From assembly GCA_964407925.1 (NCBI GenBank), contig CAYOXM010000002.1, positions 1,046 to 65,045 of the forward strand: a stretch of DNA of 64,000 nt, written 5' to 3'. The position numbers and the translations under genes are program-made. Origin of the DNA: an uncultured Gammaproteobacteria bacterium. Lineage in GTDB: Bacteria; Patescibacteriota; Patescibacteriia; SG8-24. The notes beneath the pieces were generated by a model. The model was not told where the DNA came from, did no database searches, and saw only the letters and a program-made list of their open reading frames with translations. Below, one piece after another: positions 3,071 through 54,463 of this stretch (the stretch's first letter is position 1; each line of letters opens with the position of its first letter).

Positions 3071-3985
3071 ATGAAGAAGCACTCCGCCATCGCCTACGCG
3101 ATCATTGCGCTTTCCTTTCCGGTGGCGGTTTTCGCGCAGACGGACGGCGGAACCGGCAGCGTCGAGCCCGCCCCGGCGGTAACGGCGCCGCGAGAGTCGG
3201 CCCTTGCCCCCGCGCCGTCGCCGCAAGAAGCGCCGCCTGCCGCGCAGCAGCAAGCGGTCGCTTCGCCGTCGCCTACGCCGTCGCCCAGTCCCGCTTCTGC
3301 CGCTGCGGCCCCCGCTCCGCCGCCTTCGCCCGCGTTGATGCCCGCCGCGCGACCCTCTCCTTCGCCGTCTCCGGCCGCCACGAACGCCGCTCCCGAGGCC
3401 GTCGCCGCGCCGACGTCGCAGCCTGATGAACCGCCCTCGCTCGAGGATGTCCAGGGCGCGGTCGAGGAGATCGCCGAGTACGCGCCGGAACCGATGCAGC
3501 CCGTCCTTGCGGCAGTCGCCGGCGCGCTCGGCGGCATCGTCTTCATGCTCGGCCTTTGGGAGTTCCTGAAGCGCCTCAAGCATCGCGGAAAGAAGGACTG
3601 CGACCACTGCGGCGGGACCGGCACGCAATCCGACGACGGTAAGTGCGGCTTGTGCGGTGGGTCGAAAAAAATTGAAAAAGAGGTGGAAGTGACCATCGCC
3701 TGCACGCACTGCAAGGGGAGCGGAACCGACCCCTGCCACCACTGCAGCGGTACGGGAAAAATGTCCCTGCCTAATCCTCCACAGAGCCAGGAAGAGCTCG
3801 AAGGCTGGCCGCCCTGCGATTTCTGCGGCGGAAGCGGGAAGAAAAAAGTTGGCGCGGGTCGCGACTGGGGAGAGGCGAATGACGCCATGAAGGGCGACTT
3901 CGCCTGCTGCTTCTGTCACGGCAAGAAAACGGCGACGTTCAAGCAGAAAGTGCAGATCGATTGCCCGCTCTGCGCGAAAAAGTAA
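3071..3985 (+). CDS. Membrane-anchored protein with seven DnaJ cysteine-rich-domain-type CxxC(xGxG) zinc-finger motifs. Layout: signal peptide, Pro/Ala/Ser-rich low-complexity region, one TM helix, then the Cys-rich domain.
   Basis: ATG at 3071 (MKKHSAIAYAIIALSFPVAVFAQ). Motifs CDHCGGTG, CGLCGGSK, CTHCKGSG, CHHCSGTG, CDFCGGSG, CCFCHGKK, CPLCAKK read directly from the translation. Confidence 0.6.
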   Translation: MKKHSAIAYAIIALSFPVAVFAQTDGGTGSVEPAPAVTAPRESALAPAPSPQEAPPAAQQQAVASPSPTPSPSPASAAAAPAPPPSPALMPAARPSPSPSPAATNAAPEAVAAPTSQPDEPPSLEDVQGAVEEIAEYAPEPMQPVLAAVAGALGGIVFMLGLWEFLKRLKHRGKKDCDHCGGTGTQSDDGKCGLCGGSKKIEKEVEVTIACTHCKGSGTDPCHHCSGTGKMSLPNPPQSQEELEGWPPCDFCGGSGKKKVGAGRDWGEANDAMKGDFACCFCHGKKTATFKQKVQIDCPLCAKK

Positions 3986-3996
3986 ACACCGACGCC

Positions 3997-4560
3997 ATGC
4001 CGAACAGGACGAAAGCGCGGCTTGAGGAGCTGGCGCAAAATCTGGTATCTTCGACGACGCCGATTCCGGCGGTATTGAAGCTCAAGACTGCCGAGCTGGT
4101 TTTGCGCGTCATGGAACAGAAGAAGCGAAGGCACTTCGGCCTCTTCGTCATTCTCGGCTGGCAGAGGAAGTGGCAGGACTATCTCGACATCTCCGACAGC
4201 CAGCAGGACATCTTCGTCGGCCGCCGCGTCGACATCGAGCGAGCCGGATCCGGCGGGCGTTTCGACGTGGGCACGACCATCGACTTCGACGGGGCGATCC
4301 TGATCGACCGGCGCGGCAACGTCCTGCATTCCGGCGTCTTCATCGAGGGGCTGCGGCCGAGGGCCGTGGCGCAGAAAGTGAATCCCGGCCGTTTCAACGA
4401 CCTGTCCGAGCAGTTCGGCTTCGAGACGAAAGTCCACGCTCGTCACCTTGCGGCGATCGCGGCGTCGTACGTGTTCAAGGGAACCACGGTGTTCACGGTC
4501 TCCGAGGAGACGGACGCGTTCCACGTCTTCGAGGGCGGCCGGATCGTTCATCACTTCTGA
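3997..4560 (+). CDS. DisA_N/DAC (diadenylate cyclase) domain-like protein with an N-terminal helical extension; the RHR motif is degenerate.
   Basis: FDGAILID (DGA motif), HARHLAA (in place of GTRHRAA) and VSEETDA (in place of VSEETG) align with the DAC fold. Start at the second Met, after the upstream stop. Confidence 0.45.
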   Translation: MPNRTKARLEELAQNLVSSTTPIPAVLKLKTAELVLRVMEQKKRRHFGLFVILGWQRKWQDYLDISDSQQDIFVGRRVDIERAGSGGRFDVGTTIDFDGAILIDRRGNVLHSGVFIEGLRPRAVAQKVNPGRFNDLSEQFGFETKVHARHLAAIAASYVFKGTTVFTVSEETDAFHVFEGGRIVHHF

Positions 4561-4572
4561 ATTGCGGAAAAT

Positions 4573-4601
4573 TTGACAGCCGTTCCGCCGCCGCCTATAT
4601 T
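4573..4601 (+). promoter_or_regulatory. Sigma70-like promoter TTGACA-N17-TATATT upstream of the small zinc-ribbon gene.
   Basis: Hexamers at 4573-4578 and 4596-4601 with 17-nt spacing. Confidence 0.45.
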
Positions 4602-4633
4602 CGCGGCCGCGATAAATCATTACCGACACCGCC

Positions 4634-4888
4634 ATGATCACGAAGGTCTGCGAAAAGTGCGACAAGGAGATGCGTCTCGTTCCCGCCGGCTTCAGCAAGG
4701 CGAAGAACAAGCCGTACTCGGCGTTTTGGTCCTGCGATACGCGGAACGGCGGCTGCGGCGCGACTGCCAGGGCCGAGGGCGAAGCCGCAGGTCCGGCGCC
4801 GGAAATGATGGGCGGGAGCAGTCCTGACCGCCTCGCGTCGATTGAGCGGAAACTCGACGAAATCATCGGCCTTATCAAGGCGATGTAA
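4634..4888 (+). CDS. Small zinc-ribbon protein (CxxC...C..C).
   Basis: 84-aa ORF with CEKCDK...C..........C.C, and high GC3. Confidence 0.4.
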   Translation: MITKVCEKCDKEMRLVPAGFSKAKNKPYSAFWSCDTRNGGCGATARAEGEAAGPAPEMMGGSSPDRLASIERKLDEIIGLIKAM

Positions 4889-4921
4889 CGGCGCGACGCC
4901 GGATGGCGCGGCCGCGGTAAA

Positions 4922-4930
4922 CCTGCCATA
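4922..4930 (+). promoter_or_regulatory. Extended -10 element TGCCATACT ending 8 nt before the ATG at 4939 (leaderless arrangement).
   Basis: Sequence motif. Confidence 0.4.
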
Positions 4931-4938
4931 CTGTTGGC

Positions 4939-5622
4939 ATGTGTTTTTCCGCAACGGCAAGCTTCATCGCGGGCGGCGCGCTCACTGCCGCCGGTGCCGT
5001 CACGCTTCGAGAGGCGAAGGATAGGTCCCATGTCCCGCTCGCGGCGATGCCGCTCCTTTTCGGGATACAGCAGTTGGTCGAGGGCGTCGTCTGGCTCTCG
5101 GCCGACCATCCCGTGGTGCAGAGCTGCGCGGCGTCCGTGTACGTGCTTTTCTCGCATCTGCTCTGGCCGCTCTACGTGCCGCTCGCGGTGATGCTCATCG
5201 AGCCGAAGGGCCGCAGGCGGTCGATTCTCAAGGGGTTCACCGTCTTCGGCATTTCGCTCAGCGTGTGGCTCGGCTGGTTCATCATTCACGGGCCGGTCAA
5301 GGCGTCGCTCGGCGCGCGCGGCATCATCTATTATCTGAATGTTCCGGAAATTCCGTATGGTCTCGCGGCGTACGTTTTCGTGACCTGCTTCGCCTGCTTT
5401 TTTTCGAGTCACAAGTTCATCCGGCTGTTCGGCATCTCCCTTCTCGGCTCGCTCGCCATCGCGCTCATGGCGTACCAGCAGGCGTTTTATTCGGTCTGGT
5501 GCTTCTTCGCTGCCATCCTGAGCGGCATCATCTACGCGCATCTGAAGCAGGGCGTGCGGTTGTGGCCGCAGGCGGTGAAGAAAGCCGCTGCCGCGCTCGA
5601 TAAGAAACTGAAATCGGTCTAG
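4939..5622 (+). CDS. Polytopic membrane protein of unknown function (about seven predicted TM helices).
   Basis: 227-aa ORF with hydrophobic helices throughout. Confidence 0.5.
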   Translation: MCFSATASFIAGGALTAAGAVTLREAKDRSHVPLAAMPLLFGIQQLVEGVVWLSADHPVVQSCAASVYVLFSHLLWPLYVPLAVMLIEPKGRRRSILKGFTVFGISLSVWLGWFIIHGPVKASLGARGIIYYLNVPEIPYGLAAYVFVTCFACFFSSHKFIRLFGISLLGSLAIALMAYQQAFYSVWCFFAAILSGIIYAHLKQGVRLWPQAVKKAAAALDKKLKSV

Positions 5623-7233: not shown

Positions 7234-7623
7234 ATGAAGACATTTTTTCGCGACAATCGCGGAGGAGGCAAATCCTTCGGCAAGAAGTTCGGCGACGACC
7301 GCGGTCCGCGGAAATTCGGCTTTGGCGCGCGCGGCAACGGCCCCGCGACGCTGCATGACGCGACCTGCGCGGAGTGCAACAGCCCCTGTCAGGTGCCCTT
7401 CAGGCCCAACGGCAGGAAACCCGTCCTCTGCGGCAACTGCTTCAAGAAGGACGAAGGCGGAGAGCGGCGGAGCTACGGCCGCCCGGCGTTCGGCGAGCGG
7501 CGTACGTTCAGCAAGCCGTTCGAACGGCCCCAGGCGCAGCAGGCCGACCTCAGCCGCGTCGAGGCGAGGCTCGCGGCGATCGAAGCGAGGCTTGACGAGC
7601 TGCTCAGCAGGACCGCGGAATAA
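7234..7623 (+). CDS. Stand-alone CxxC-x17-CxxC domain protein (the domain usually forms the C-terminal tail of DEAD-box helicases).
   Basis: CAEC-NSPCQVPFRPNGRKPVL-CGNC gives exactly 17 residues between the Cys pairs. Gly/Arg/Phe-rich flanks. Confidence 0.6.
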   Translation: MKTFFRDNRGGGKSFGKKFGDDRGPRKFGFGARGNGPATLHDATCAECNSPCQVPFRPNGRKPVLCGNCFKKDEGGERRSYGRPAFGERRTFSKPFERPQAQQADLSRVEARLAAIEARLDELLSRTAE

Positions 7624-9689: not shown

Positions 9690-10625
9690 ATGATCGCCCT
9701 GCACATCCTCCTGATGGCCTCGCTGTCCCTCATCATGGGACAGGCGGCGCACCACGTCGTGAATGCCGTCAAACACGCAGGCAAGCGTTTCGGCATAAGC
9801 AAGTTTCTCGTCGCGTTCGTGTTTCTCGGGATGGCGACCTCGACGCCCGAAGTCTCGGTGGCCGTGCTTTCCGCCCTCCGGGGCACGCCTGGCCTGTCGC
9901 TCGGCAACCTTCTCGGCGCGAACATCGTCATCCTCTCGCTGCTGTCGGGTCTCGCGGCCGTCATCGGCGGTCGGCTTCATCCCGGTGAAATCTACCGGAA
10001 GCGCACGCTGCCGCTTTTCCTGTTCATCGTGCTCCTGCCCGCCTTCGCCGCGCTCGACGGGCGGCTGACGCGCGCGGATGGCGTCCTCCTCGTGACGGCG
10101 CATTTCCTTTTCATCCTGCACCTCTATTGGAGCAGGGAAACGGGCACGCCGAGAGTTGAGACCGTCACGAAGGGCCCATTCAGGAGGCAGCTTGCCATTG
10201 CTGCCGCGGCGGTTCTCGTCCTCCTCTCGTCCTCGTATTTTCTCGTGAACTCCGCGCTCATCGTCGCGCGTTCTCTCGGTGCGACGCCGCTGCTCATCGG
10301 CCTCCTCCTGTTTTCCGTCGGTACCAACCTGCCCGAATTTTCGCTCGTCCTGACGCAGGCCGGGGGCCGTCAAAAAGACGTCGTCCTCGGCGACCTCTTC
10401 GGCAGCCTGCTCCTGAACACGCCGACGCTCGGCCTCCTCGCGCTCATCAGCCCTTTTACCATCGCCGATCAGGCCGCCGTGCAGGCATCGGCGGTTTTCC
10501 TCATCGCGCTCGCCGCCATTTTCGGCGCTTTCCTGTGGACCGGCCGTGCGCTCGAGCGGCGTGAGGGGTACTGCCTGCTCGCGCTCTACGCCGGATTCCT
10601 CGCGTGGTACGCGCGGTTCCTGTAG
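9690..10625 (+). CDS. Sodium/calcium exchanger (CaCA family, YrbG-like) membrane protein.
   Basis: Two alpha-repeat regions with GNLLGANI and GTNLPE motifs; polytopic membrane protein. Confidence 0.7.
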   Translation: MIALHILLMASLSLIMGQAAHHVVNAVKHAGKRFGISKFLVAFVFLGMATSTPEVSVAVLSALRGTPGLSLGNLLGANIVILSLLSGLAAVIGGRLHPGEIYRKRTLPLFLFIVLLPAFAALDGRLTRADGVLLVTAHFLFILHLYWSRETGTPRVETVTKGPFRRQLAIAAAAVLVLLSSSYFLVNSALIVARSLGATPLLIGLLLFSVGTNLPEFSLVLTQAGGRQKDVVLGDLFGSLLLNTPTLGLLALISPFTIADQAAVQASAVFLIALAAIFGAFLWTGRALERREGYCLLALYAGFLAWYARFL

Positions 10626-10654
10626 CGGCGCGCTCGCGGATGCGGGCTTTGACG

Positions 10655-10663
10655 TGGTATGCT
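10655..10663 (+). promoter_or_regulatory. Extended -10 element TGGTATGCT. The ORF-track start at 10659 lies inside it, so the real start is probably 10668 or 10674.
   Basis: Sequence motif overlapping the first ATG. Confidence 0.4.
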
Positions 10664-10673
10664 GCATATGCCT

Positions 10674-12455
10674 ATGCGCGACGAGAAACGCTTCCTGCAG
10701 GTTTTCGCCATCGGTCTCGCGGCCCTTGTGGTCGGCGGGGGCTTTTGGACGTCGTGGTCCGTGCGGCAGATCACCGCGCAGGTCAGGGAAGACCTGTCGT
10801 TCGGGGTCGAAATAACGGGTGCTGGCGTTAACGCGGCGCGCGTCGAACAGCTGACGCTGTCCCCGGCGGACAAGACCGCGGAGGACTACCTGCGCCTGCG
10901 CGCGTTCCTCGGTCGCGTGCAAAAGATGCTCGACCGCAAGCACGTCCGCGGCGTCTACCTGATGAAGGTGACCGGCGACGACGTCCGGTTCGTCGTGGAC
11001 TCGGCACCGGAGACCGATCCGTGGCACAGCGAACCCGGCAAAAAATACGAGGAGCCTCCGGCGGCGGTATTTGAAACGGCGCGTCTCGGCGAGACGCGAT
11101 TCGTCGGTCCGTACACCGACGAATACGGGACGTTTTATTCCGTTTTCTCGCCCGTGCGCGACGTGACGGGGCGCATCGTGGCCGTCGCCGGCGGCGACGT
11201 GGATGCCGCGATGTACGACCTTCTGGTGAACCGACGGTTGCGTCTGCTGTTGGCGATTGCGCTCCTTGCGATGGTCGCCTATTGCGCGCTCGGATTCGCC
11301 GTCGTGAGCGTGCTGCGGAGGCGGCACGAGCGGACGCGGCGTCTTGCGGAGCAGCTCCGCGGCGCGAGGGAGCGTGACGCCCTGCTCATGAACATCAACG
11401 AGGGGGTCGTGGCGGTCGACGAAAGCGGCATCGTGACCTTCGTCAACACGTACGCGGCGAAGGCGGTCGGAACGCGGCGCGAGGACGCCATCGGCAAGCC
11501 GTTCGAGCAGCGTTGGCTCGTCACGGATGAAAAGGGCGTTGAGCTTCCCGAGGAACGGCAGCCGCTCATGGCGGGCCGCGGCGGAAAGACGAAGGCGCCG
11601 AGCGGCGGATACGTGTATCTGCGCGGTAAAAACGGCACGTTCCCCGTCATCGTCGCCTCGGCGCGCGTGCGGGGCAAGGACTTTCCCGCCATGACGGTGA
11701 TGACGTTCAGGGATTACGCCAAGGAGGCGGAAGTCGACCGGATGAAGTCTGATTTCATCTCCGTCGCCGCGCATCAGATCAAGACGCCGCTCACTGCGCT
11801 CAAGTGGATTGTCGGAACCTTGACCGGCGCGAAAACCGTCCGTCCTCCCGAGGAGGCGGAAGTCATCGGCCAGTTGTCTGACGTCGTGCGGCATCTCGAC
11901 GAGCTCGTTCACGCGCTGCTGAATGTGTCGCGCATCGAGTCCGGAAAGTTAGTGCTCGAACCGCGGCCCGTGGCGCTCGCGCCGATCGTCGAGGATGCGA
12001 TGAAGGAAGTCGAGCTGAAGGCCAAGGAAAAAAATCTCCACCTGTCGCTCGTGGTCGGCGACGACGTCGCCGAGGCGATGGCGGACTCGCGAATCATCCG
12101 CGAAGTGTACAAGAACCTGCTCACGAACGCGGTGAAGTACACGTCAAAGGGGGGTCACGTCCATGTCGAGATCGCTGGTGACGGGGAAAGCGTGCGTTCG
12201 TCCGTCAAGGACGACGGGTACGGCATTCCCGACGCGGAAAAGGACCGCGTGTTCGCTAAGTTTTTCCGCGCTTCAAACGTGGTCGGTCTGGATGAAGAGG
12301 GGACGGGCCTCGGGCTGTATTACGCGAAGCAGGTCGTCGAGGCGTCCGGCGGCGAAATGTGGTTTGAATCGACGCAGGGCAAGGGCTCGACCTTTTATTT
12401 CAGATTGCCGGTCGCGGAGCTGAGGCCGAAGAAACACGCGACTCGAGCGCGCTAG
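10674..12455 (+). CDS. Sensor histidine kinase with an extracytoplasmic Cache-like domain, a TM helix, a PAS domain, HisKA and HATPase_c domains.
   Basis: H-box SVAAHQIKTPL. N/G boxes LLTNAVKYT and GTGLGL. PAS-like region INEGVVAVDESGIVTFVN. No response regulator lies adjacent. Confidence 0.8.
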   Translation: MRDEKRFLQVFAIGLAALVVGGGFWTSWSVRQITAQVREDLSFGVEITGAGVNAARVEQLTLSPADKTAEDYLRLRAFLGRVQKMLDRKHVRGVYLMKVTGDDVRFVVDSAPETDPWHSEPGKKYEEPPAAVFETARLGETRFVGPYTDEYGTFYSVFSPVRDVTGRIVAVAGGDVDAAMYDLLVNRRLRLLLAIALLAMVAYCALGFAVVSVLRRRHERTRRLAEQLRGARERDALLMNINEGVVAVDESGIVTFVNTYAAKAVGTRREDAIGKPFEQRWLVTDEKGVELPEERQPLMAGRGGKTKAPSGGYVYLRGKNGTFPVIVASARVRGKDFPAMTVMTFRDYAKEAEVDRMKSDFISVAAHQIKTPLTALKWIVGTLTGAKTVRPPEEAEVIGQLSDVVRHLDELVHALLNVSRIESGKLVLEPRPVALAPIVEDAMKEVELKAKEKNLHLSLVVGDDVAEAMADSRIIREVYKNLLTNAVKYTSKGGHVHVEIAGDGESVRSSVKDDGYGIPDAEKDRVFAKFFRASNVVGLDEEGTGLGLYYAKQVVEASGGEMWFESTQGKGSTFYFRLPVAELRPKKHATRAR

Positions 12456-12466
12456 CCTGCCGCCCC

Positions 12467-13813
12467 ATGCGCACGACCATCACCGTCGCCATCCTCTCCC
12501 TCCTCCTGGCCGGTCCCGCGCTCGCCGCCCCCGCATCGGGGTCGCTCGTCCGCGCCTCGCAACCATCCGTCTATTATTACGGACCTGACGGCAAACGGTA
12601 CGTCTTCCCGAACGAGAAGACGTACAAGACGTGGTATGCCGATTTCAGCGGCGTCATCAAGATTTCGGACGCGGACCTCGCCGCGATTCCGCTCGGCGGC
12701 AACGTGACGTACAAGCCGGGGAGCAGGATGGTGAAAATAACGTCCGATTCCAAAGTTTACGCGGTCGACGCCGGCGGTACGCTCCGGCCGATTCAGGACG
12801 AGGCTGCCGCGAAGGCGTTGTACGGTTCCTCGTGGAACACGATGGTCGACGACGTGCCGGACGCGTTTTTCGTGAATTACAAGACGGGGGCCGCGGTCGC
12901 GACGGCGGCCGATTTCTCGCCGTCCGCCGCAACGGCGAAGGCGGCGTCGATAGCGGCCGACCGCGGTCTTGCCGCCGTCTCTTCCCTCGACATCCACGCC
13001 CTGCCGATAGGCGACGGAAAATATTCAACGGCGTCAAAAAGGGGGTACGTGTATTCTTGTCAGACTGCGTTCAGCGGCGGCGGCGCGTTCGCGTCGGGGA
13101 GCTGGATAAGCGGCGCGACGTGGGATGCGACGAAAAAGCCGACGGTCGACGGCAGCGTGACCTGGCCGAACGCCGCGTTCGCGATCGCGAAAAGCGGTGT
13201 CAGCCGGACGTTCACGAGCAACGCCCTGCCGAAAAATCACGCGACGGGGACCTTCCCGATTTCCGCATCGGATGACGCGTACATGTACGACCGTAATCCG
13301 AATTCGATCGCCGCGCAGTCGCTCTCGTTCACGCTTCCCGTCAGTCCGGTTGTCGCCGCGAACCCGTCCTGCGTCGGCGGCGAGGTCGGCATTGCGACGT
13401 CCGGCGTTCCCATTTTTAACGGATTTGACGCCGGCGGACGCGACGCGGTCGCTCATGAAATCCAGGATTCGTGCGGCGGCCATCCGCAGGTTTCGGGCAT
13501 GTACCACTACCATGGGCCGAGCGCGTGCGTCGCGACGGGCGATTCCGAACTGTTCGGCTACGCCTTCGACGGTTTCGGCATCTTCTCGAACGTCGAGAGC
13601 GGGAAGTCGCTCACGAACGACGACCTCGACGAGTGTCACGGGCACAGCCACGCGATATCGTGGGACGGTGTCATGACGACGATGTACCACTATCACCTGA
13701 CGAAGGAATTCCCTTACACCGTCGGTTGCTTCCGCGGCCAGAAGTACGTGAACGGTCCGCTTGGCGGCGGTGCAGGTCCGGGCGGCATGCAGGGGCCTCC
13801 CCCGATGTTCTGA
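12467..13813 (+). CDS. Secreted YHYH-domain protein with an N-terminal repeat domain of the type seen in Parcubacteria-like exported proteins.
   Basis: Signal peptide. YYYGPDGKRYVFPNEKTYKTWY...ISDADL module. C-terminal YHYHGP...YHYHLT motifs. Confidence 0.55.
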   Translation: MRTTITVAILSLLLAGPALAAPASGSLVRASQPSVYYYGPDGKRYVFPNEKTYKTWYADFSGVIKISDADLAAIPLGGNVTYKPGSRMVKITSDSKVYAVDAGGTLRPIQDEAAAKALYGSSWNTMVDDVPDAFFVNYKTGAAVATAADFSPSAATAKAASIAADRGLAAVSSLDIHALPIGDGKYSTASKRGYVYSCQTAFSGGGAFASGSWISGATWDATKKPTVDGSVTWPNAAFAIAKSGVSRTFTSNALPKNHATGTFPISASDDAYMYDRNPNSIAAQSLSFTLPVSPVVAANPSCVGGEVGIATSGVPIFNGFDAGGRDAVAHEIQDSCGGHPQVSGMYHYHGPSACVATGDSELFGYAFDGFGIFSNVESGKSLTNDDLDECHGHSHAISWDGVMTTMYHYHLTKEFPYTVGCFRGQKYVNGPLGGGAGPGGMQGPPPMF

Positions 13814-13854
13814 TGCGCGCGAGGTCACCGATGACGCTCGCGAAGAAGAAGCGT

Positions 13855-13884
13855 GAAACGAACCTCCGCGGAGGTTCGTTTTTC
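13855..13884. terminator. Intrinsic terminator between convergent secreted-protein genes.
   Basis: gaaacgaacctcc-gcgg-aggttcgtttttc hairpin with flanking A/T runs. Confidence 0.55.
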
Positions 13885-13899
13885 ATTCGGCCGGCGGCG

Positions 13900-14985
13900 T
13901 CAGCGCCACAGGCGCTTCGGGCCGAGCACCGCGTTGTGGAGCCAAAGTTCGAAAAGCGACGCCCACGTGGGATCGATTTCCGGTTCGGCGAGCAGCGGCG
14001 TCGAGAAGTTCACGTTGAACCGCCGCCATGGCGACCACATCTGCCAGCCGCGCCTTCCCCAGTAATGGCGGGCGCGCAACCGGTAATGGCCGTCCGGCAG
14101 CACGCGCCGGATGACGCCGGTATCGCCGAAGCAGTCGATCCTGTCGTCGCTGCACCGAACGGCGGCGTGGGAAACGTCCTTGGCGCGGGAGATGACCACG
14201 GTTTCCCACGTCCGGGCGGCGTCATCCCACGTTTCGAGGTGGTACTGGCTGTAAAAATGCTCGTCGTCGTTCGGATCGTCCTTTTCCCCGATGTCGAGCG
14301 GGTGACGGGACCGCGTGACGTCCGTGTAGAATTCGAACGTGATGACCGGCTCGTGGCGGTACAGCCCCTCGTACGGCAGTCTGACGAACGTGCGTCCGAG
14401 GGCGGCGGGGGCCCCTCGCGGCTTCCGTACGAGGTCTTCGGACATGATTTTGAAATACGCGTCCAGTTCCGGCGTGCCGTAATACGACTGCGGGGCCGGC
14501 AGGGGGTTGTTTCTCGTGAAGCGCACCTGGAGCTGGTTGTTGCACTGCAGGTGCATGTCCTTTCCCGTGTGCAGCAGCACGATTTGCCCAACGGTGATGT
14601 TCGTCTCCTGCGTCAGGTCGTAGTAAACCTCCTTGGTTTCGTAGCGCTTGAACGAAAAAGTTTCGGGGTCGCCCCAGACCCACCGTCCGCCGTCGAAAAC
14701 CCCGGGGGACAGCATCGCCTTGCATGGCCGCTCGCCCTCGTTGCGGATCAGGACGGCGAACCCCAGGAAGCGCGCGTCCCGGTTGACGAAGCAGTCCTCG
14801 TTGTTCGCGAAGTGGATGAAGTTGCCGCCGTCGCCTTCCTCCTGCTCCTCCTGCGCGCAGTTGACCATCGCCGCCTGAGCGGCGCGCGGCGCAGTCGAGA
14901 AGCATGCCGCGGCGACGAGGGCCAATGCCGCGGCCCGTCGCGCGTGCCGTGCTGTGGCATCTCCGTTGTGGCGGAAGAGGGCCAT
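13900..14985 (-). CDS. Secreted hypothetical protein (~360 aa), Trp/Arg-rich at the C-terminus, no recognisable domain.
   Basis: Signal peptide MALFRHNG...ALALVAAACFSTAPRAAQA. High GC3 throughout. Confidence 0.5.
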   Translation of the reverse strand: MALFRHNGDATARHARRAAALALVAAACFSTAPRAAQAAMVNCAQEEQEEGDGGNFIHFANNEDCFVNRDARFLGFAVLIRNEGERPCKAMLSPGVFDGGRWVWGDPETFSFKRYETKEVYYDLTQETNITVGQIVLLHTGKDMHLQCNNQLQVRFTRNNPLPAPQSYYGTPELDAYFKIMSEDLVRKPRGAPAALGRTFVRLPYEGLYRHEPVITFEFYTDVTRSRHPLDIGEKDDPNDDEHFYSQYHLETWDDAARTWETVVISRAKDVSHAAVRCSDDRIDCFGDTGVIRRVLPDGHYRLRARHYWGRRGWQMWSPWRRFNVNFSTPLLAEPEIDPTWASLFELWLHNAVLGPKRLWR

Positions 14986-14986
14986 G

Positions 14987-15514
14987 TCAGCGGACCGCAA
15001 TGACGCGGTAGATGACCATCTTCGCCGGTCCCTTCACGGCGGCCTCGTCCCCCGGTTTTTTTCCGAGGAGCGCCTTGCCGAGCGGCGAAAGGTGCGAGAT
15101 GCGTCCCGAAGAAGGGTCGGTTTCCTGCGAACCGGTCAGCTGATACCGCTTCTCCTTGCCGTTGACCTCGACGACGACCGTCGAGCCGATGCGCGCCCCG
15201 CCTTCGGCGTCGGCTCCCGGACGGATGACGACGGCGAATTTCAGCCGTTCCTTCATTTCGAAAATCAGGCTGTCGATTTTCATGAGACGGCCCTTGGCCT
15301 CGGAATACGCGGCATTCTCGGAAAGGTCGCCCATCTCCCTCGCGCGCGTGAGGTCCTCGAGCGCGCGGGGTCGCGAAACGTCCTCCAGCCGGCGGAGATC
15401 TTTCTCGATTTTCTGCAGGGCAGCCGGCGACAGGAAGTCGTCGGCAGGGCCGCCGTACTTCCTGCGTTCCGCCGAGCGCCGTTTCGGTACTTGCATAGCG
15501 GGGGATAAGGGCAT
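14987..15514 (-). CDS. greA: Transcription elongation factor GreA.
   Basis: GDLSENAAY...KG signature and a C-terminal FKBP-like domain. An alternative start at 15496 (MQVPKRR) is possible. Confidence 0.8.
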   Translation of the reverse strand: MPLSPAMQVPKRRSAERRKYGGPADDFLSPAALQKIEKDLRRLEDVSRPRALEDLTRAREMGDLSENAAYSEAKGRLMKIDSLIFEMKERLKFAVVIRPGADAEGGARIGSTVVVEVNGKEKRYQLTGSQETDPSSGRISHLSPLGKALLGKKPGDEAAVKGPAKMVIYRVIAVR

Positions 15515-15556
15515 GGTAGCGGTACGGGCTCGGCGGTGGCAAGGCCGCCTTAAACG

Positions 15557-15565
15557 TGGTATACT
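15557..15565 (+). promoter_or_regulatory. Extended -10 element TGGTATACT ending 7 nt before the ATG at 15573 (leaderless arrangement).
   Basis: Sequence motif. Confidence 0.45.
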
Positions 15566-15572
15566 GTCTTAC

Positions 15573-16421
15573 ATGAACCTCTCGAGGAAGGTCAGTAACG
15601 AACAGCACGACATTACCGCGCTTTTCGTCCTTAACGTGCTTATCGTCGCGGCGGCGCTCCTCGCCGGCGACGGCAAGTCGTTCTTCCAGGACGGAACGGT
15701 ATACGGTTTCGGCCTGCTGTTTCTCACCCTCGCGTCGGTACGCGCCGCGACGCTCTATCGGCTGTTCGACCCGACGCTGAAGAAGTACATCGCGATGTGC
15801 TCGGCGGGCATGATCATCTTCGCGGGGTCGCAAGTGTTCGAAATCGCGATTGCCGCGGCCGGCACGCGGACCTTCATGAACATGATGCACGTGACGAGCC
15901 TGTATGTCATGGCGGTGCTCGTGATGACGTGGGCTTCCGCGAGCCTTCTCGCCGAGGCGAAGCTCGAAAAGAGCTACGGTCCGTTCACCAAGAACGCGGC
16001 CGTCGGGCTCGCCGTCCTCGCCGCGGCCGGCTGGTTCACCGCCGACGTCTACCTGCAGAAAATCGATCCCACGTTCCACTTCGACAGCAGGATGATGATG
16101 CTCATCGCCCTGCTCATCGCCGTCATCGCGGGATTCGGATTGCACGCCATCCTCATGGTGAAGCGAAAATTCAGCGTGCTCAGCGGCTTCGCCGAATACC
16201 TCGGCATCGCGTTCATGCTCATGGTGCTTACGGGCGCCGTCTCGATGCTCGAGGCGGTCCGCAGTTACGCGTTCTTCCGCGAGGGCATCCACACGACGTC
16301 GTACGCGCGGTACGTGCTTTTTTACGCCGCGCTCAGCTTCCTTTTCGTGGCTTTCGGCAAGATGCGGAAGCTTGGCGGCATCTACAGCGACTTGGAAGCG
16401 GAGAGGGAAAAGGGGGCGTGA
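15573..16421 (+). CDS. Polytopic membrane protein of unknown function.
   Basis: ATG at 15573 (MNLSRKV...) inside ORF 15156..16421. About eight hydrophobic helices. Confidence 0.5.
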   Translation: MNLSRKVSNEQHDITALFVLNVLIVAAALLAGDGKSFFQDGTVYGFGLLFLTLASVRAATLYRLFDPTLKKYIAMCSAGMIIFAGSQVFEIAIAAAGTRTFMNMMHVTSLYVMAVLVMTWASASLLAEAKLEKSYGPFTKNAAVGLAVLAAAGWFTADVYLQKIDPTFHFDSRMMMLIALLIAVIAGFGLHAILMVKRKFSVLSGFAEYLGIAFMLMVLTGAVSMLEAVRSYAFFREGIHTTSYARYVLFYAALSFLFVAFGKMRKLGGIYSDLEAEREKGA

Positions 16422-16487
16422 ATCGCGGGGGCGGATTGACGCGTGGACCCGCAAGGTCCATGCTGTTTTTATAGCCTACGAACTCCT

Positions 16488-17756
16488 ATGCGATCAGCAA
16501 ATCCGTTCGAAAACGCGTTGTTGCAGATAAGTCGCGCCGCAGCCGTCCGCGCGTTCGCGCCTGCATTTCTTGAGTCGCTACGGCACCCGAAGCGCGAAAT
16601 TCGCGTCGCCATTCCGGTGCGCATGGATGACGGCAGTCAGCGCATTTTCGAGGGCTACCGCGTGCAGCACGACAACGCGCGAGGGCCGTACAAGGGCGGC
16701 ATCCGTTTCCATCAGGACACCGACATTGACGAAGTCCGCGCGCTCGCGCTCTGGATGACGATGAAGTGCAGCCTTGCGGGCCTGCCGATGGGCGGCGGCA
16801 AGGGCGGCGTGACCGTCGACCCGAAAACCCTTTCCAAAGGCGAGCTCGAACGGCTTTCGCGCGGGTTCGTCCGAGCGCTCGTCGACGTACTCGGACCGGA
16901 AAAGGACGTTCCGGCGCCGGACGTGAACACCACGCCGGAAATAATGGCGTGGATGGCCGACGAGTACGCCAGGCTCACCGGCGACGGTTCCGGCGCGGTG
17001 ATCACCGGCAAGCCGCTCGACAGGGGCGGATCGGAAGGCCGCGGCAAGGCGACCGCGCTCGGCGGTTTCTACGTCTTTCAGACGCTGCGTGCGCGGCTCG
17101 GTCTGCCTGAACGCTGCCATGTGGCCGTCCAGGGTTTTGGCAACGCCGGACGGCACGCGGCCGAGCTGTGGGCCGCCGCGGGACACCGTGTCGTCGCCGT
17201 ATCCGATTCGCGCGGCGGCGTTCACGACGAGGGCGGCCTCGACGTCGCGGCAGTCGCCGCGCACAAGGACGCGACGGGTTCGGTAGTCGGTTTCCCCGGT
17301 GCGCGGACGGTGACGAACGAGGCGCTGCTCGAACTCGCCTGCGACCTCCTCGTGCCCGCCGCACTCGAGAATCAGTTGACTGCGGCGAACGCCGGCCGGA
17401 TCAGGGCGACGGCGGTGCTGGAGCTCGCGAACGGGCCGACGACGCCCGAGGCCGACGACGCCCTGTTCGCTTCGAGAGTCCACGTCGTGCCCGACATCCT
17501 CGCGAACGCGGGCGGCGTAACCGTTTCGACTTTCGAATGGGAACAGAACCTCAGGGGCGAGCGTTGGTCGGAAGAAGAAGTCCTCGAGAAACTTTCCGCG
17601 AACATTCGCGCGCAGGCTGAGGCCACGTGGGCTCGTGCCAAAGAACTGCATACGGACATGCGTCGCGCGGCGTTCGCACTCGCACTCGAACGGCTTGAGG
17701 AGGCGAAGGCGCGCGCGGAGGAAAGAGCGGCGGAGCGTCAAGCCGTTGCCGCGTGA
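16488..17756 (+). CDS. gdhA: Glutamate dehydrogenase (Glu/Leu/Phe/Val dehydrogenase family).
   Basis: GPYKGGIRFH and GGGKGG motifs; start placed at MRSANPFE. Confidence 0.85.
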   Translation: MRSANPFENALLQISRAAAVRAFAPAFLESLRHPKREIRVAIPVRMDDGSQRIFEGYRVQHDNARGPYKGGIRFHQDTDIDEVRALALWMTMKCSLAGLPMGGGKGGVTVDPKTLSKGELERLSRGFVRALVDVLGPEKDVPAPDVNTTPEIMAWMADEYARLTGDGSGAVITGKPLDRGGSEGRGKATALGGFYVFQTLRARLGLPERCHVAVQGFGNAGRHAAELWAAAGHRVVAVSDSRGGVHDEGGLDVAAVAAHKDATGSVVGFPGARTVTNEALLELACDLLVPAALENQLTAANAGRIRATAVLELANGPTTPEADDALFASRVHVVPDILANAGGVTVSTFEWEQNLRGERWSEEEVLEKLSANIRAQAEATWARAKELHTDMRRAAFALALERLEEAKARAEERAAERQAVAA

Positions 17757-17765
17757 TGGCGGAGA

Positions 17766-17792
17766 AAAGGGCCGAAAGGCCCTTTTTACTTT
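17766..17792. terminator. Bidirectional intrinsic terminator (aaaagggcc-gaaa-ggcccttttt).
   Basis: Hairpin flanked by an A-run and a T-run between convergent genes. Confidence 0.6.
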
Positions 17793-19048
17793 TTCGTGAG
17801 CGTCATTTCCCACCCGGGAGGGTTGAGCGGGATGGTGGCGGTTTCGCCGCGGGACAGGGCGTCGAACGTCGCCGCGTGGCGAATAAAGCCGAGGTCGGGA
17901 AGTGGCGGATCGCGGAAGTCGGCGGCGAATCCGAAGGCGGCAATGCACAACGTCACGACGCCTATCGCGCGGGTGATGCGGGCTTTTTTGCGTGTCGCCG
18001 CCCATAGCGCCGACGTGACGAGCGCGAGTACGGGAAGGAACCAGTAACGGGAACCCGACGACGACGAAAAAAGCACGGACCATGCGCGGGCGGCATAATC
18101 GGCCGCCCCCGCAGTCCGGCCGATGTTTGGCGCGATGAGCGATGCGGCGAAACTCGCGCCGGCGAACGCGAGGAGATAGCGGAGCTGCCAGGATCCCCGG
18201 ACGGCGGCGTAGGCGATGGTCGCGACGGCGGCGAGGGAGATGAGGTGCGGCAGAAGATCGTGGTTCGCGAGCATGCGGTAGCCGCGCATGCCGACGAGCC
18301 CGCCGAGGAGAATCTGCTTTTCGATCATGCCGACGAGCAGCGCAAGGCTGAACTCCGGGCGATACCCGAACCTGCTGCCGGCATTGAGCGCGAACAGCGC
18401 CATGAGCTGCAGCGCTCCCGTCACCGCAAGCACGAGAAGCTGCCGAAGACGTCGGCCGTCGTTTTCCTTGCGCCACCGCAGATAGGCGAGCGGCGCAAGG
18501 AAAACCGCGTAGGGTCCCGAGAGTCCCGCGAGCGCGAGCGTCGCGACATCGACCGCGTTTCCGCCGCGCGTCGATGGCGGGCGCGCGACGACGATCATGA
18601 AGGCGATGAGCGCCAAGTACCACTGCGCGTTCGTCGCGTTGCCGTGTATTTCGGCGGTATTGGGCAGCAGCAGATAGGCCGCGGCGAGCGCCAGCCGCGC
18701 TCGGAAGTCCGGTATGGCGTCCTTGAATCGCGGCGAAAGGAGGAATGCCGCGGGCACTGCCTGCAGGACGAAAGCCACGCCATTCATGAAAAGCGGCGCG
18801 AGAGCGAGGGGCAGCGCCTGTGCGGCGAGGCCGACGAGGCGCAGGTACGTGGAGAAGTACCCGTCCTGCGTCATGAGGAACGGACGGAGCGCGCCGAACT
18901 CGTGCGCGTGCCGATACCAGATCGCGCCGTCCTCGGCCCAGAATTGCGCGTTCAGGAGGGCGTCGGGCCGGCGGAGAACAACGACGGCGAGCGCGAAAAG
19001 AAAAGCCGCCACGTACGGCCGACGTCCTTCGGCGAACGCGCGGCGCAT
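17786..19048 (-). CDS. Integral membrane protein (about 11 TM helices), possibly a GT-C-fold glycosyltransferase; function uncertain.
   Basis: 420-aa hydrophobic ORF with high GC3. Confidence 0.45.
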   Translation of the reverse strand: MRRAFAEGRRPYVAAFLFALAVVVLRRPDALLNAQFWAEDGAIWYRHAHEFGALRPFLMTQDGYFSTYLRLVGLAAQALPLALAPLFMNGVAFVLQAVPAAFLLSPRFKDAIPDFRARLALAAAYLLLPNTAEIHGNATNAQWYLALIAFMIVVARPPSTRGGNAVDVATLALAGLSGPYAVFLAPLAYLRWRKENDGRRLRQLLVLAVTGALQLMALFALNAGSRFGYRPEFSLALLVGMIEKQILLGGLVGMRGYRMLANHDLLPHLISLAAVATIAYAAVRGSWQLRYLLAFAGASFAASLIAPNIGRTAGAADYAARAWSVLFSSSSGSRYWFLPVLALVTSALWAATRKKARITRAIGVVTLCIAAFGFAADFRDPPLPDLGFIRHAATFDALSRGETATIPLNPPGWEMTLTKK

Positions 19049-19051
19049 ACG

Positions 19052-19657
19052 TCAGCGGCAGGCGGCGACGGCGGCCTCGATGGTAACTTCGGTAAAGCCG
19101 AGCGCCTTGAACAGCGTTTCAAGCTGCCGTTTCGCGCTGTCCGTGGCGACCGCGAAAATGTCGCCCGCGCATGCCGCCGCGCGGATGGCGATTTCCGCCT
19201 GCGACCGCGCATCGGCTTCGAGGTCCTTATCGCCCTTCGTGAGCAGGCCGAGCTTGCGGTCGTACACCTGCGTTTTTTCGGCGTCGAGCGAGGCGACCAG
19301 GATTTCCGGGGCGGGCAGATGCATGGTAAGCGAAGTGCCGGTCACGGTCACGTCGTCGTCGCGCAACTTGGCGAGGTCGAAACCGGCTATGACGCGGCCG
19401 TGCGCGACGAGCAGGATGCGGTCGCCGAAAAGGAAGTCCTTGAGCTTGCTGCCGACGGTTCCCGCTTCGATTACTTTTTCCACGGTGAACGACGTCGATT
19501 CGAGCCGGCCGAGGCGTTGGACCTCCTTCACGACCGCCGTGCGGCTCAAATCGAACGCGGGACCGGCGGAAGGCCGGCTGACCTTGAGGGCGATGGCGGT
19601 GACGACGCCGCCGCCGAGGACGATGCCGACGGCGAGTGCGATGATCGCGCGTTTCAT
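19052..19657 (-). CDS. DUF4230-like membrane-anchored protein.
   Basis: Start at MKRAIIALAVGIVLGGG (one TM helix), then a soluble domain. Confidence 0.45.
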   Translation of the reverse strand: MKRAIIALAVGIVLGGGVVTAIALKVSRPSAGPAFDLSRTAVVKEVQRLGRLESTSFTVEKVIEAGTVGSKLKDFLFGDRILLVAHGRVIAGFDLAKLRDDDVTVTGTSLTMHLPAPEILVASLDAEKTQVYDRKLGLLTKGDKDLEADARSQAEIAIRAAACAGDIFAVATDSAKRQLETLFKALGFTEVTIEAAVAACR

Positions 19658-19722
19658 GTCGTTCAGTATACCGGCCTCCGGCCGGTCGCACAAATGAAAA
19701 ACCGCCCTTTCGGGCGGGTTCG

Positions 19723-20499
19723 TCAGACGCCCTTCCCGAAGACGGGAAGTTCACCGTGACAGACGAGCGGGAAGTCGTGAAAGGCCTCAGGATGCTTCGC
19801 GAGGATGAAGCGGTCGAGGAGCAGGTAGCTCTGCGGCGCCATGACCGCGGCCAACCGCCGCAGGGCGAGCGCGACCGTGCGCGGACGGAAGTAGCCGAGG
19901 AAGTTGCGGCAGACGATGAGGTCGTACGGACCGCCGAGGTGGTCCTTGAACACGTCGCCGTGCCTGAACCGCAGGTGGCCCATGACGACGGGATCGACGT
20001 AGCCGTGGACGTACTTCGGCATTCCTGAGAGCGGGATGATGCCGCTCCTCGCCGTGTCGATGCACGCGGGCTGGATGTCGATGCCGTCAATCAGGAAGTG
20101 GCCGCAGCCGCCCTCCAGGCATTCGATGGCCAGGCTGACCGCCTCCTCGCCGTGCGAGCACGGGAGGCTCAGGATGCGCCCGCCTTCCGCATTGTCCCTG
20201 AGGAACGGGACTATTTCCTTGCGCAGGAAATCGATCTCCGGTCCATCGAACCGCATCAGGGTCGTCTCGTTCGTGATGAGGTTCGCGCGGAGCTTCTCTT
20301 CGAGGCTCATGCGGGCGAACGTCCCGGCACCCGCCCAATACGCGCCGCGCGAATCGGCGGCGAGCAGGCGCTCGAGATCGGCGACGTCCTTGGCGCGATC
20401 GACCGCGTAGAGCAGCTCCGAAACGTATCGCGAATCCTTGTCGAGCACGCCGGATTCCTGTCGAATGAACGAACGAACGGCATCAAGATCATTCAGCAT
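19723..20499 (-). CDS. CheR-type SAM-dependent methyltransferase-domain protein (orphan; no chemotaxis genes nearby).
   Basis: [17 protein letters not shown] (compare CheR RIWSAGCSTGEEPYSLA) and [12 protein letters not shown] (compare DVIFCRNVLIYF). Confidence 0.55.
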
Positions 20500-20560
20500 G
20501 GCATCGTCCTCCTTGTCCCCTCCGATAAGGAACCGCGCATCTTTGCAGAAAAAACGCGTT

Positions 20561-20590
20561 TTGTCAACCGTGTGACCGCCGTGCTACGAT
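20561..20590 (+). promoter_or_regulatory. Sigma70-like promoter TTGTCA-N18-TACGAT upstream of the second msrB.
   Basis: Hexamers at 20561-20566 and 20585-20590. Confidence 0.4.
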
Positions 20591-20622
20591 TGCGTCCGTG
20601 CTCATCCGTTAACGCGTTCCCC

Positions 20623-21027
20623 ATGACCGACAAGATGCTCAAAAGCGAGGAGGAATGGAAGCGATCGCTCACGCCGGAGCAGTATCGCGTGCTGCGCGAG
20701 AAGGGAACCGAAGCGGCTTTTACGGGGAAATACTGGGATGTCGACGCCGACGGGATGTTCCGCTGCGCGGGCTGCGGCGCAGCGCTGTTCGCGTCCGACG
20801 CGAAGTTCGACTCCGGGACCGGTTGGCCGAGCTTCACCGCGCCTGCGGCAAAGGACGCGGTCGAGTTGCGAACCGACGACAGTCATGGCATGCGCCGGAC
20901 GGAGGTCGTCTGCGCGAAGTGCGGCGGGCATCTCGGGCACGTCTTCGACGACGGTCCGGGACCGGACGGCAAGCGTTTCTGCATCAATTCCTGCTCGTTG
21001 TCGCTCGACGAGAAGAAAAAAGGATGA
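20623..21027 (+). CDS. msrB: Peptide-methionine (R)-S-oxide reductase MsrB, cytoplasmic form without a signal peptide.
   Basis: CAGCGAALF...GWPSF...[12 protein letters not shown]; 134 aa. Confidence 0.85.
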
Positions 21028-21058
21028 GAAAACCCGCGGTTCGCCGCGGGTTTTCGTC
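21028..21058. terminator. Bidirectional intrinsic terminator (aaaacccgcgg-ttcg-ccgcgggtttt).
   Basis: Hairpin flanked by A-runs and T-runs between convergent genes. Confidence 0.6.
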
Positions 21059-22868: not shown

Positions 22869-22931
22869 AGCAAATGACGCTTCAAGCATACCCCCGCGTT
22901 CGCCGGCGTGGCAACCAATCGGCGAGTCCCG

Positions 22932-22937
22932 TATACT
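22932..22937 (+). promoter_or_regulatory. -10 element TATACT ending 8 nt before the ATG at 22946 (leaderless arrangement).
   Basis: Sequence motif. Confidence 0.4.
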
Positions 22938-22945
22938 GCGTCCAT

Positions 22946-24211: not shown

Positions 24212-24237
24212 AAAAAGAAGGCCTCGGGCCTTCTTGC
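24212..24237. terminator. Bidirectional intrinsic terminator (aaaaaagaaggcc-tcg-ggccttctt).
   Basis: Hairpin with a flanking A-run and T-rich 3' side. Confidence 0.55.
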
Positions 24238-24247
24238 GGAGCGCGGG

Positions 24248-24514
24248 TCACGGCGTGCGGTAACGGATGATCCGCCAAGCGTGCATGCCACCGTTGCCGA
24301 AGTGGAACTTGAGCATGAGGTAACCGCCCTTTGCGACATCTTCTACTTCGGCGGTCGGCGCGACCGCCTTCAGGATTTCGGTCGCGCGGGCGATGGACAT
24401 GACCTTGCCGTCGAGGCCGTCGGCCACGACCTTGAGCTGGAGCGGGAGCGGTACGGCAGCGCCGCCGATGCCGGGATGCGGGGCGTAGAAGTACTTCCGC
24501 GTATCGTCGTTCAT
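24248..24514 (-). CDS. Small hypothetical protein (88 aa).
   Basis: High GC3 and a GGAGGT Shine-Dalgarno sequence 3 nt upstream of the start. Confidence 0.4.
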   Translation of the reverse strand: MNDDTRKYFYAPHPGIGGAAVPLPLQLKVVADGLDGKVMSIARATEILKAVAPTAEVEDVAKGGYLMLKFHFGNGGMHAWRIIRYRTP

Positions 24515-24583
24515 GGAACCTCCGAGAAAGGGCCGCGATCAGCCTAGCAGCGTGTCATCACTTCTGTCATCACCCCTCGTCGC

Positions 24584-25216: not shown

Positions 25217-25287
25217 ATGCCTATGGTGCGCACGACCCGAAACGCCATGACCGGCGAGTATTATCCTCACGGAGGGCTGGCTTCGTA

Positions 25288-49347: not shown

Positions 49348-49382
49348 GAACCCTTCGCGGCAGACGTATTCGCGCAGCGCGA

Positions 49383-49427
49383 AAATAAAACGCCGCCGTC
49401 TCCGGCGGCGCCCGATGTTTTTTCGAA
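49383..49427. terminator. Bidirectional intrinsic terminator (cgccgccg-tctc-cggcggcg).
   Basis: Hairpin flanked by AAAATAAAA and TTTTTT. Confidence 0.55.
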
Positions 49428-49432
49428 CGAGA

Positions 49433-52966: not shown

Positions 52967-52975
52967 GTAAGTTCC

Positions 52976-54459: not shown

Positions 54460-54463
54460 CCTT

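Follow-up and report, generated by a model that had tools for sequence, protein, structure and literature searches.

We analysed a 64,000-nucleotide stretch of contig CAYOXM010000002.1 (NCBI assembly GCA_964407925.1, from an uncultured bacterium placed by GTDB in the Patescibacteriota), hereafter the window, in whose coordinates all positions are given (Table 1). Two genes lie near its start on the forward strand: open reading frame (ORF) 1, which encodes a membrane protein with a multi-CxxC zinc-finger domain, and ORF2, which starts 12 nt past the ORF1 stop and encodes a protein resembling diadenylate cyclases (DACs). A first-pass annotation, made from the letters of the sequence, had presented the two as a possible pair; the object of interest is not the gene pair, but a DAC clade with RH(L/x) in place of the canonical RHR motif, often fused to a cytidylyltransferase. 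The ORF2 homologs all begin at the position of ATG 3997, and an upstream TTG at 3961 was rejected as its start. A long antisense ORF (3916–5541, − strand) was also rejected as a gene; the long antisense ORFs across ORF1 and ORF2 are high-GC artefacts, since the GC content at third codon positions of ORF2 is 0.83 and both forward-strand products have conserved homologs.

ORF2 carries three motifs, FDGAILID (residues 97–104), HARHLAA (147–153) and VSEETDA (168–174), which the first-pass annotation had mapped onto the catalytic motifs of DisA_N/CdaA, with Leu for the second Arg of RHR. HMMER alignment to Streptococcus pneumoniae CdaA bore out this mapping (and the 12-nt spacing was as described), placing R149-H150-L151 on R-H-R and VSEET on VSEETG; the substituted residue was seen as L151. 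In the same comparison F133 (F or Y in the family) aligned to the Tyr of the canonical YLPL segment, equivalent to Tyr187 of Listeria monocytogenes CdaA, which stacks on adenine (PMC10167629). A Pfam search returned a single match, DAC (PF02457; E 3.2e-5, profile positions 52–118 of 119), at 23.9 bits against a gathering score of 27 bits, so the profile search suggested at first pass gave a match by E value that did not reach the gathering threshold. NCBIfam gave no relevant match, and direct comparison with the sequences of solved DACs was weak (E about 0.1).

We then considered the predicted fold. The AF2 model of ORF2, built with 33 homologs, reached a pLDDT of 86.5 and a pTM of 0.84, and consisted of two N-terminal helices followed by an alpha/beta domain. 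When the model was compared with the PDB by Foldseek, the best 50 matches were all diadenylate cyclases (probability 1.0, TM-scores 0.38–0.63), among them DisA of Mycobacterium tuberculosis and M. smegmatis, CdaA/DacA of Listeria, Bacillus, Staphylococcus and Streptococcus, and DacM/CdaM. Taken together, the Pfam match, the motif alignment, the AF2 model and the Foldseek matches support a DAC fold for ORF2, as a distant member, and back the DAC-like call made at first pass.

A word-indexed search identified 265 homologs of ORF2, nearly all of 175–220 aa; the 120 listed were 54–92% identical to it, and those with names belonged to Azambacteria, Yanofskybacteria, the Parcubacteria group and the Patescibacteria group. 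Many carried a precomputed PF02457 match; family members are named "DAC domain-containing protein" in UniProt, and some sources name them automatically "DisA". An alignment of 33 homologs (52–79% identity) contained 51 invariant positions, including F97-D98-G99-A100-I101-L102, H111-S112-G113, E117-G118, D135-L136-S137, Q139, G141-F142, K145-V146-H147, R149-H150-L151 and T167-V168-S169-E170-E171. We therefore rejected the view of ORF2 as a decayed one-off copy, RHL being invariant in 33 of 33 homologs. Because RHL is fixed in the family together with every other active-site residue, and the wider clade described below also lacks the second Arg, it is a lineage hallmark under purifying selection, not decay, and the earlier description of a "degenerate" RHR does not hold.

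The breadth of the family was assessed with a HMMER scan of 1.84 billion representative proteins. The family profile matched 111 proteins at E ≤ 1e-3 and 22 at E ≤ 1e-30, mostly from Patescibacteria, so the family is narrow. The weaker matches formed a wider clade of 190–300-aa proteins with the consensus DGA(I/V)L(I/V)...GF...V(G/H)TRHxSAIxAS...LSEEtGxIRxFE. Among 40 of these sequences, D98 was kept in 39, H150 in 36, S169 in 33 and E170 in 32, and position 149 was Arg in 36 and Lys in 4; position 151 was L, I, T, Y, S, H or N, with Arg in only one of the 40. Position 176 (window 4522–4524) was Arg in 35 of the 40 and an invariant His in the core family (alignment A2), and its residue may be a relocated phosphate ligand. 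Pfam DAC was matched at E ≤ 0.01 by 28 of the 40, and several proteins scored above the gathering threshold despite RHL, RHS, RHT or RHI: P0199 (42.9 bits), P0157 (41.9), P0185 (37.8) and P0128 (36.0; 44% identical to ORF2). Another relative, P0148, passed at 32.4 bits. On these comparisons we place ORF2 within the DAC family, in a branch that is small, uncharacterised and highly conserved and occurs mostly in Patescibacteria.

Genomic context was surveyed in one genome per species, which yielded 52 loci with the DAC-like module, each taken with ±10 kb flanks. About 44 carried Patescibacteria-type names (Yanofsky-, Azam-, Wolfe-, Harrison- and Uhrbacteria, Paceibacterota, Parcubacteria group and "uncultured Saccharibacteria"). 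The other eight, which include the closest relatives of the window, were labelled Binatia, Gammaproteobacteria, Acutalibacteraceae, Vicinamibacterales or "bacterium"; we read these unrelated or generic names as unreliable labels of metagenome-assembled genomes. The inconsistent labels on the closest relatives also include Eisenbacteria, and this clade is high-GC.

In 21 of the 52 loci, the DAC-like module and its helical hairpin formed the C-terminal half of a 318–388-aa ORF; the hairpin was kept in these fused proteins, whose matches spanned query residues 9–185. Their N-terminal ~150 aa matched CTP_transf_like (PF01467, up to 58.8 bits) and TIGR00125 above cut-off; within NCBIfam they most resembled RfaE domain II and glycerol-3-phosphate cytidylyltransferase. 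Among solved structures, the nearest relatives of this nucleotidyltransferase (NTase) domain were ethanolamine-phosphate cytidylyltransferase (ECT; 3elb), 3glv and TagD (1coz), and its HxGH and SSS signatures were intact. Four further loci (L024, L032, L034 and L037) encoded the same NTase as a separate ORF directly upstream of the DAC-like gene, bringing fusion or adjacency to 25 of 52 loci. The window itself has the stand-alone form, with no NTase homolog in its 64 kb. Among the other recurrent neighbours, SecA lay upstream in 21 loci and a PD-(D/E)XK protein lay downstream in 27. The NTase association, absent from the first-pass annotation, is more informative than the zinc-finger pairing, and suggests that signal synthesis is coupled to a nucleotide-activated, possibly envelope-related, precursor pathway.

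We compared ORF2 with the three best-matching kinds of known enzyme. CdaS (YojJ/DacB) is the sporulation-specific diadenylate cyclase of Bacillales. It resembles ORF2 in being small (about 200 aa) and soluble, and its DAC domain is C-terminal to a pair of helices (PMC4568413); the two-helix extension proposed for ORF2 at first pass was predicted in the AF2 model, at residues 4–18 and 25–41. ORF2 nevertheless showed no sequence match to the YojJ N-terminal domain (none at E ≤ 1 in Pfam or NCBIfam), and differs from CdaS in reading RHL instead of RHR, in occurring mostly in Patescibacteria and not Bacillales, and in carrying an extra N-terminal cytidylyltransferase-like domain in other lineages. 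Structure 2FB5 was not among the 50 Foldseek matches listed for ORF2.

CdaA (DacA) is the membrane-bound housekeeping diadenylate cyclase, with CdaR and GlmM as partners. It has in common with ORF2 the DAC fold, the DGA motif, the adenine-stacking aromatic residue and VSEET; by loose analogy, the membrane-anchored neighbour of ORF2 might be likened to CdaR, and the fused NTase to GlmM. ORF2 lacks, however, the three N-terminal transmembrane (TM) helices of CdaA, having no 19-residue hydrophobic window above 1.5, and, unlike the cdaA-cdaR-glmM operon, its surroundings hold no cdaR or glmM but the zinc-finger gene, a Zn-ribbon gene (84 aa) and a DUF6629 gene. Furthermore, GTRHR was present in 30 of 30 CdaA-type sequences (short fragments from a search seeded with a 52-aa CdaA fragment), whereas the ORF2 family reads HxRHL. 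The best structural matches to ORF2 were to DisA (M. tuberculosis 9y4s and 9y9y; E 7.5e-6, 180 aligned columns), but ORF2 has neither the linker nor the C-terminal helix-hairpin-helix DNA-binding domain of DisA, ends six residues past the DAC domain, and lacks RHR; the database name "DisA" on family members is a domain-level label only.

We also characterised the upstream gene. The layout given for ORF1 at first pass (signal peptide, Pro/Ala/Ser low complexity, one TM helix and seven CxxC motifs) was found in full. An alternative TTG start lies at 3041; the ATG at 3071 yields a signal peptide, MKKHSAIAYAIIALSFPVAVFA followed by QT, that is also seen in homologs, with cleavage probably between VFA and QT. 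At the position of the low-complexity segment the homologs have Q/N/P-rich segments of differing sequence, and all share a low-complexity N-terminal part and one TM helix. By the positive-inside rule, the C-terminal domain is probably cytoplasmic. All 15 Cys residues of ORF1 fall within its final 139 residues, and 14 belong to the seven CxxC motifs (residues 177, 192, 211, 222, 249, 279 and 298); shuffling of this 139-residue segment gave a mean of 1.48 such motifs, and one of 20,000 shuffles reached seven. Four of the motifs fit CxxCxGxG (CDHCGGTG, CTHCKGSG, CHHCSGTG and CDFCGGSG). The first, CDHC, was found in the window protein only, whereas twelve Cys (six CxxC) were invariant across three database homologs (alignment A3), which suggests three zinc sites.

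These three were the only database homologs of the cytoplasmic domain in a search of 5.8 billion clusters; two more ORF1 homologs (36–42% identity) came from L002 and L008, and an 820-aa ORF of L011 contained a partial match. The window protein itself had no significant match to PF00684, its sole Pfam match being BSD2_CRD at E 0.057; the 311-aa homolog of L008, however, passed DnaJ_CXXCXGXG (PF00684) at 35.2 bits against a cut-off of 32.7, and also passed Anti-TRAP. The search proposed at first pass thus succeeded for the homolog and not for ORF1. No J domain was matched in ORF1 in Pfam or NCBIfam. Because the L008 homolog passes both profiles, the description of the ORF1 family as DnaJ-CR-type (DnaJ cysteine-rich) without a J domain, membrane-anchored as the first-pass annotation had it, is a reasonable one. 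BSD2 and anti-TRAP, DnaJ-CR relatives without a J domain, have repeated CxxCxGxG-type motifs like those of ORF1; ORF1 differs in holding six to seven CxxC, not four, in its membrane anchor, which follows a signal peptide and a low-complexity ectodomain, and in having no significant profile match itself. The AF2 model of the zinc-finger domain, built with three homologs, was too poor for use (pLDDT 57.5).

Table 1 Positions and supporting evidence of the features at the ORF1–ORF2 locus, with examples of fused homologs.
Feature	Position	Strand	Evidence
ORF1, 304 aa, predicted type-I membrane protein; DnaJ-CR-type zinc-finger domain with multiple CxxC on the cytoplasmic side	3071–3985	+	ORF translation; homologs P0121–P0123 and L002 and L008 ORFs; L008 homolog passes Pfam DnaJ_CXXCXGXG
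Predicted signal peptide, residues 1–22 (...VFA, then QT)	3071–3136	+	Hydrophobic window at residues 3–25; (V/L)FAQT end also in P0121 and the L008 homolog
Ala/Pro/Ser-rich low-complexity segment, residues 23–140, predicted extracytoplasmic	3137–3490	+	A 30, P 29, S 14 of 118 residues (62%)
Single TM helix, about residues 143–165, then KRLKHRGKK	3497–3565	+	Kyte-Doolittle windows up to 2.19
Cys-rich domain, seven CxxC, six conserved, probably three Zn sites	3599–3982	+	Motif positions; shuffle test; twelve invariant Cys in alignment A3
ORF2, 187 aa, divergent DAC-like protein of a clade mostly in Patescibacteria	3997–4560	+	Pfam DAC E 3.2e-5; 265 homologs; AF2 pLDDT 86.5; Foldseek best 50 all DACs
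N-terminal helical hairpin, residues 4–18 and 25–41, conserved LKxKTAELIL	4006–4119	+	AF2 secondary structure; S19, K28, A32, E33 and L36 conserved
DGA motif, D98-G99-A100	4288–4296	+	Invariant 33/33; D kept in 39/40 of wider clade
RHL, R149-H150-L151, in place of canonical RHR	4441–4449	+	Invariant 33/33; aligned to CdaA RHR
S169-E170-E171 of VSEET (phosphate and metal ligands in canonical DACs)	4501–4509	+	Invariant 33/33; aligned to CdaA VSEETG
Sigma-70-like promoter match, TTGACA-17-TATATT, in the 73 nt that separate ORF2 from the 84-aa gene	4573–4601	+	11/12 consensus matches; 1 found vs 0.6 expected; consensus match only
Examples of NTase–DAC fusions	L018:3611–4621, L020:9518–10540, L026:9536–10567, L044:9365–10531 and 17 other loci		

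What does ORF2 do? We favour the reading, with a probability of about 0.55, that it is an active, divergent, CdaS-like soluble diadenylate cyclase, because it keeps the equivalents of the residues found important in the experiments on canonical enzymes cited here, all but the second Arg, and has predicted N-terminal helices like those of CdaS. Substitutions D172A and R203A abolish the activity of a tested CdaA and S222A attenuates it (PMC12974146), so the equivalents of D98 and R149 are essential there and that of S169 contributes, which supports an active ORF2. DAC catalysis requires head-to-head dimers (PMC8573169), and the N-terminal helices of CdaS control its oligomerisation (hexamer) and activity (PMC4568413). 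By extension, the hairpin of ORF2 would drive or regulate oligomerisation, like the YojJ helices in CdaS, so that two DAC domains meet head-to-head; each would bind ATP and a divalent metal via D98 of DGA, R149/H150, S169 and E170/E171, with F133 stacking on adenine, and the 3′-OH of each ATP would attack the alpha-phosphate of the other, giving cyclic di-AMP (c-di-AMP) and two pyrophosphates. The missing second Arg, a fixed feature of the clade, may be offset by other, clade-specific invariant basic residues (K145, H147 and H176). With more than 50 invariant positions held across Azam-, Yanofsky-, Wolfe- and Harrisonbacteria, and one copy in each locus, the gene looks like that of a housekeeping enzyme and not of a pseudoenzyme.

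Several observations weigh against an active diadenylate cyclase. To our knowledge no RHL-bearing enzyme has been assayed. Canonical DACs need both DGA and RHR, RHR is described as common to all studied DACs, and its replacement by AAA abolishes activity (PMC3328451, PMC4568413). Each of the 30 canonical CdaA-type fragments reads GTRHR(A), and the canonical G-T before RHR is H-x in the ORF2 family, with position 148 variable. The PF02457 score of ORF2 lies under the Pfam gathering score, as given above, and the family profile failed to reach canonical DACs among the 1.84 billion proteins. The remaining points concern the rest of the c-di-AMP machinery, for which the first-pass annotation had suggested a search for other DAC genes and phosphodiesterases; none were found within the 64-kb window. 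There, family hidden Markov models and motif searches gave no second DAC-like gene, the Pfam matches of the 56 further ORFs (a small fraction of the genome) included no phosphodiesterase or receptor family (DHH/DHHA1, PgpH-type HD, RCK_C or PstA), and the Rfam gathering scan was empty, with no ydaO riboswitch. The flanking loci (~0.8 Mb, again a small genome fraction, checked by motif only) contained no canonical DAC. These absences are weak evidence, because the window covers only a fraction of the genome. In the literature searched, no paper linked Patescibacteria with c-di-AMP, save a gut survey listing zero DACs for the phylum; this is the sole DAC tabulation for Patescibacteria in that literature, and it covers gut genomes only.

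The main rival, which we consider unlikely but the best placed of the alternatives, is that ORF2 is an active DAC-fold enzyme with shifted chemistry, producing linear pApA/pppApA or another (cyclic) dinucleotide, or 3′-adenylylating a nucleotide-activated metabolite, maybe in series with the NTase domain fused elsewhere. It would account for the systematic replacement of a phosphate-binding hallmark residue and for invariants of the clade's own (K145, H147, H111-S112-G113, E117-G118, D135-L136-S137 and Q139). It also fits a family profile clearly apart from canonical DACs, and the 21 fusions and four adjacent pairs with an NTase that keeps HxGH and SSS, in which both halves look catalytic. On the other side, the metal, ribose and phosphate ligands of diadenylate cyclisation are all retained, as is the adenine-stacking aromatic; N-terminal domains of DACs are usually taken as regulatory; and the window genome has the stand-alone form, with no NTase homolog within 64 kb. 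We also know of no DAC-fold enzyme with a product other than c-di-AMP. A bolder reading takes the RH(L/x) clade as a whole out of c-di-AMP synthesis: its members would be nucleotidyltransferases of DAC fold that make a new product, and those of Yanofskybacteria-type genomes would each form half of a bifunctional cytidylyltransferase-DAC enzyme. This seems to us doubtful and somewhat less likely again.

A further proposal, not exclusive of the others, is that ORF1 and ORF2 form a functional pair, in which the membrane zinc-finger protein recruits or regulates the DAC-like enzyme as CdaR regulates CdaA. The two genes share a strand and are separated by 12 nt, and the only promoter-like site follows ORF2, which suggests that they are co-transcribed as a unit separate from the downstream genes. 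Zinc-finger homologs, moreover, lie within 0.4–1.1 kb of the DAC-like gene in L001, L002 and L008 and at ~3 kb in L011. The order and spacing differ in every locus, however: only in the window does the zinc-finger gene immediately precede the DAC-like gene; it lies upstream with one ORF between in L001, ~1 kb downstream in L002 and L008, and ~3 kb downstream in L011. The synteny check proposed at first pass gave no conserved pairing, with a homologous gene within 1–3 kb in four to five of the 11 close-clade loci, in differing orders, and none near the DAC-like gene in six others (L003, L009, L010, L013, L014 and L059) or in the ~40 Yanofsky/Azambacteria-type loci. A more distant zinc-finger homolog, P0123, is encoded on a 6-kb contig without a DAC-like gene, and the database holds three detectable homologs of ORF1 as against 265 of ORF2. 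Several other genes (the 84-aa Zn-ribbon, DUF6629, EngB, MsrB, HIT, zf_Tbcl_2, HU and PIF1) recur in the same loci, equally shuffled, so that the neighbourhood reflects synteny of the region among close relatives rather than a specific pair. A conserved zinc finger–DAC operon was accordingly rejected on shuffled order, absences and the isolated P0123, and the "paired" partner of the first-pass annotation did not survive as such; we rate a functional pairing as improbable. ORF1 is better regarded as a lineage-specific membrane protein in its own right, whose cytoplasmic part is a zinc-finger domain of DnaJ-CR type, than as a conserved partner.

Least probable of all is that ORF2 has the DAC fold but no catalytic activity, whether it regulates by binding a nucleotide or c-di-AMP or is a pseudoenzyme, as the "catalytically dead" option of the first pass had it: the incomplete RHR, the unconserved preceding G-T, the sub-threshold Pfam score and the lack of other c-di-AMP machinery seen nearby speak for it, but pseudoenzymes usually lose catalytic residues, whereas D98, R149, H150, S169, E170 and E171 are invariant alongside RHL in an unusually conserved family, and ORF2 is the sole DAC-like gene in the window and in each examined locus, which would leave a c-di-AMP sensor without a source in the sequence seen.

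Several neighbouring genes were recorded in their own right. The 84-aa CxxC Zn-ribbon protein (4634–4888, +) and the DUF6629 membrane protein (4939–5622, +) are encoded near the DAC-like gene in seven and six close-clade loci, respectively, at shuffled positions, and recur there more often than the ORF1-type zinc-finger gene. The zf_Tbcl_2 treble-clef protein (7234–7623, +), with a Gly/Arg-rich N-terminus and a coiled-coil tail, also recurs in these neighbourhoods, and the finger is duplicated in the copy at L010:6986–7720.

Elsewhere in the window, a 756-aa ORF (44332–46602, −) matched the PI3_PI4_kinase catalytic domain at residues 621–713 (39 bits, cut-off 27.1), a eukaryote-type domain unusual in bacteria, and Lysyl_oxidase, a domain uncommon in bacteria, was matched in a 583-aa ORF (50113–51864, −) at 72.9 bits. 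The gene content of 9690–26175 and 49000–64000 looks rich for a Patescibacteria-type genome, and includes aconitase, isocitrate and glutamate dehydrogenases, a biopterin-dependent aromatic amino-acid hydroxylase, PAS histidine kinases, CheR, and an ECF sigma factor with DUF4349. Positions 1–2000 have a GC content of 0.555, compared with 0.62–0.68 in the remainder, and hold TspO, glyoxalase-like, DUF1801 and OmdA-type genes. A tRNA scan of the 64 kb gave no match.

c-di-AMP is an essential osmotic and cell-envelope signal in many bacteria. If the favoured reading is correct and ORF2 makes c-di-AMP, these reduced genomes would keep this signalling through an enzyme that breaks the "universal" RHR rule, and would thereby reveal what the second Arg is needed for; alternatively, the DAC fold has been recruited to new chemistry, and a new product would mean an unrecognised nucleotide signal or nucleotide-linked metabolite in ultra-small, host-dependent bacteria. 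The Pfam gathering score of 27 bits, tuned on canonical DACs, misses part of the family, and census studies may therefore undercount DACs in candidate phyla. Furthermore, the recurrent fusion with an apparently active cytidylyltransferase ties the signal to a precursor pathway in a way that is concrete and can be tested.

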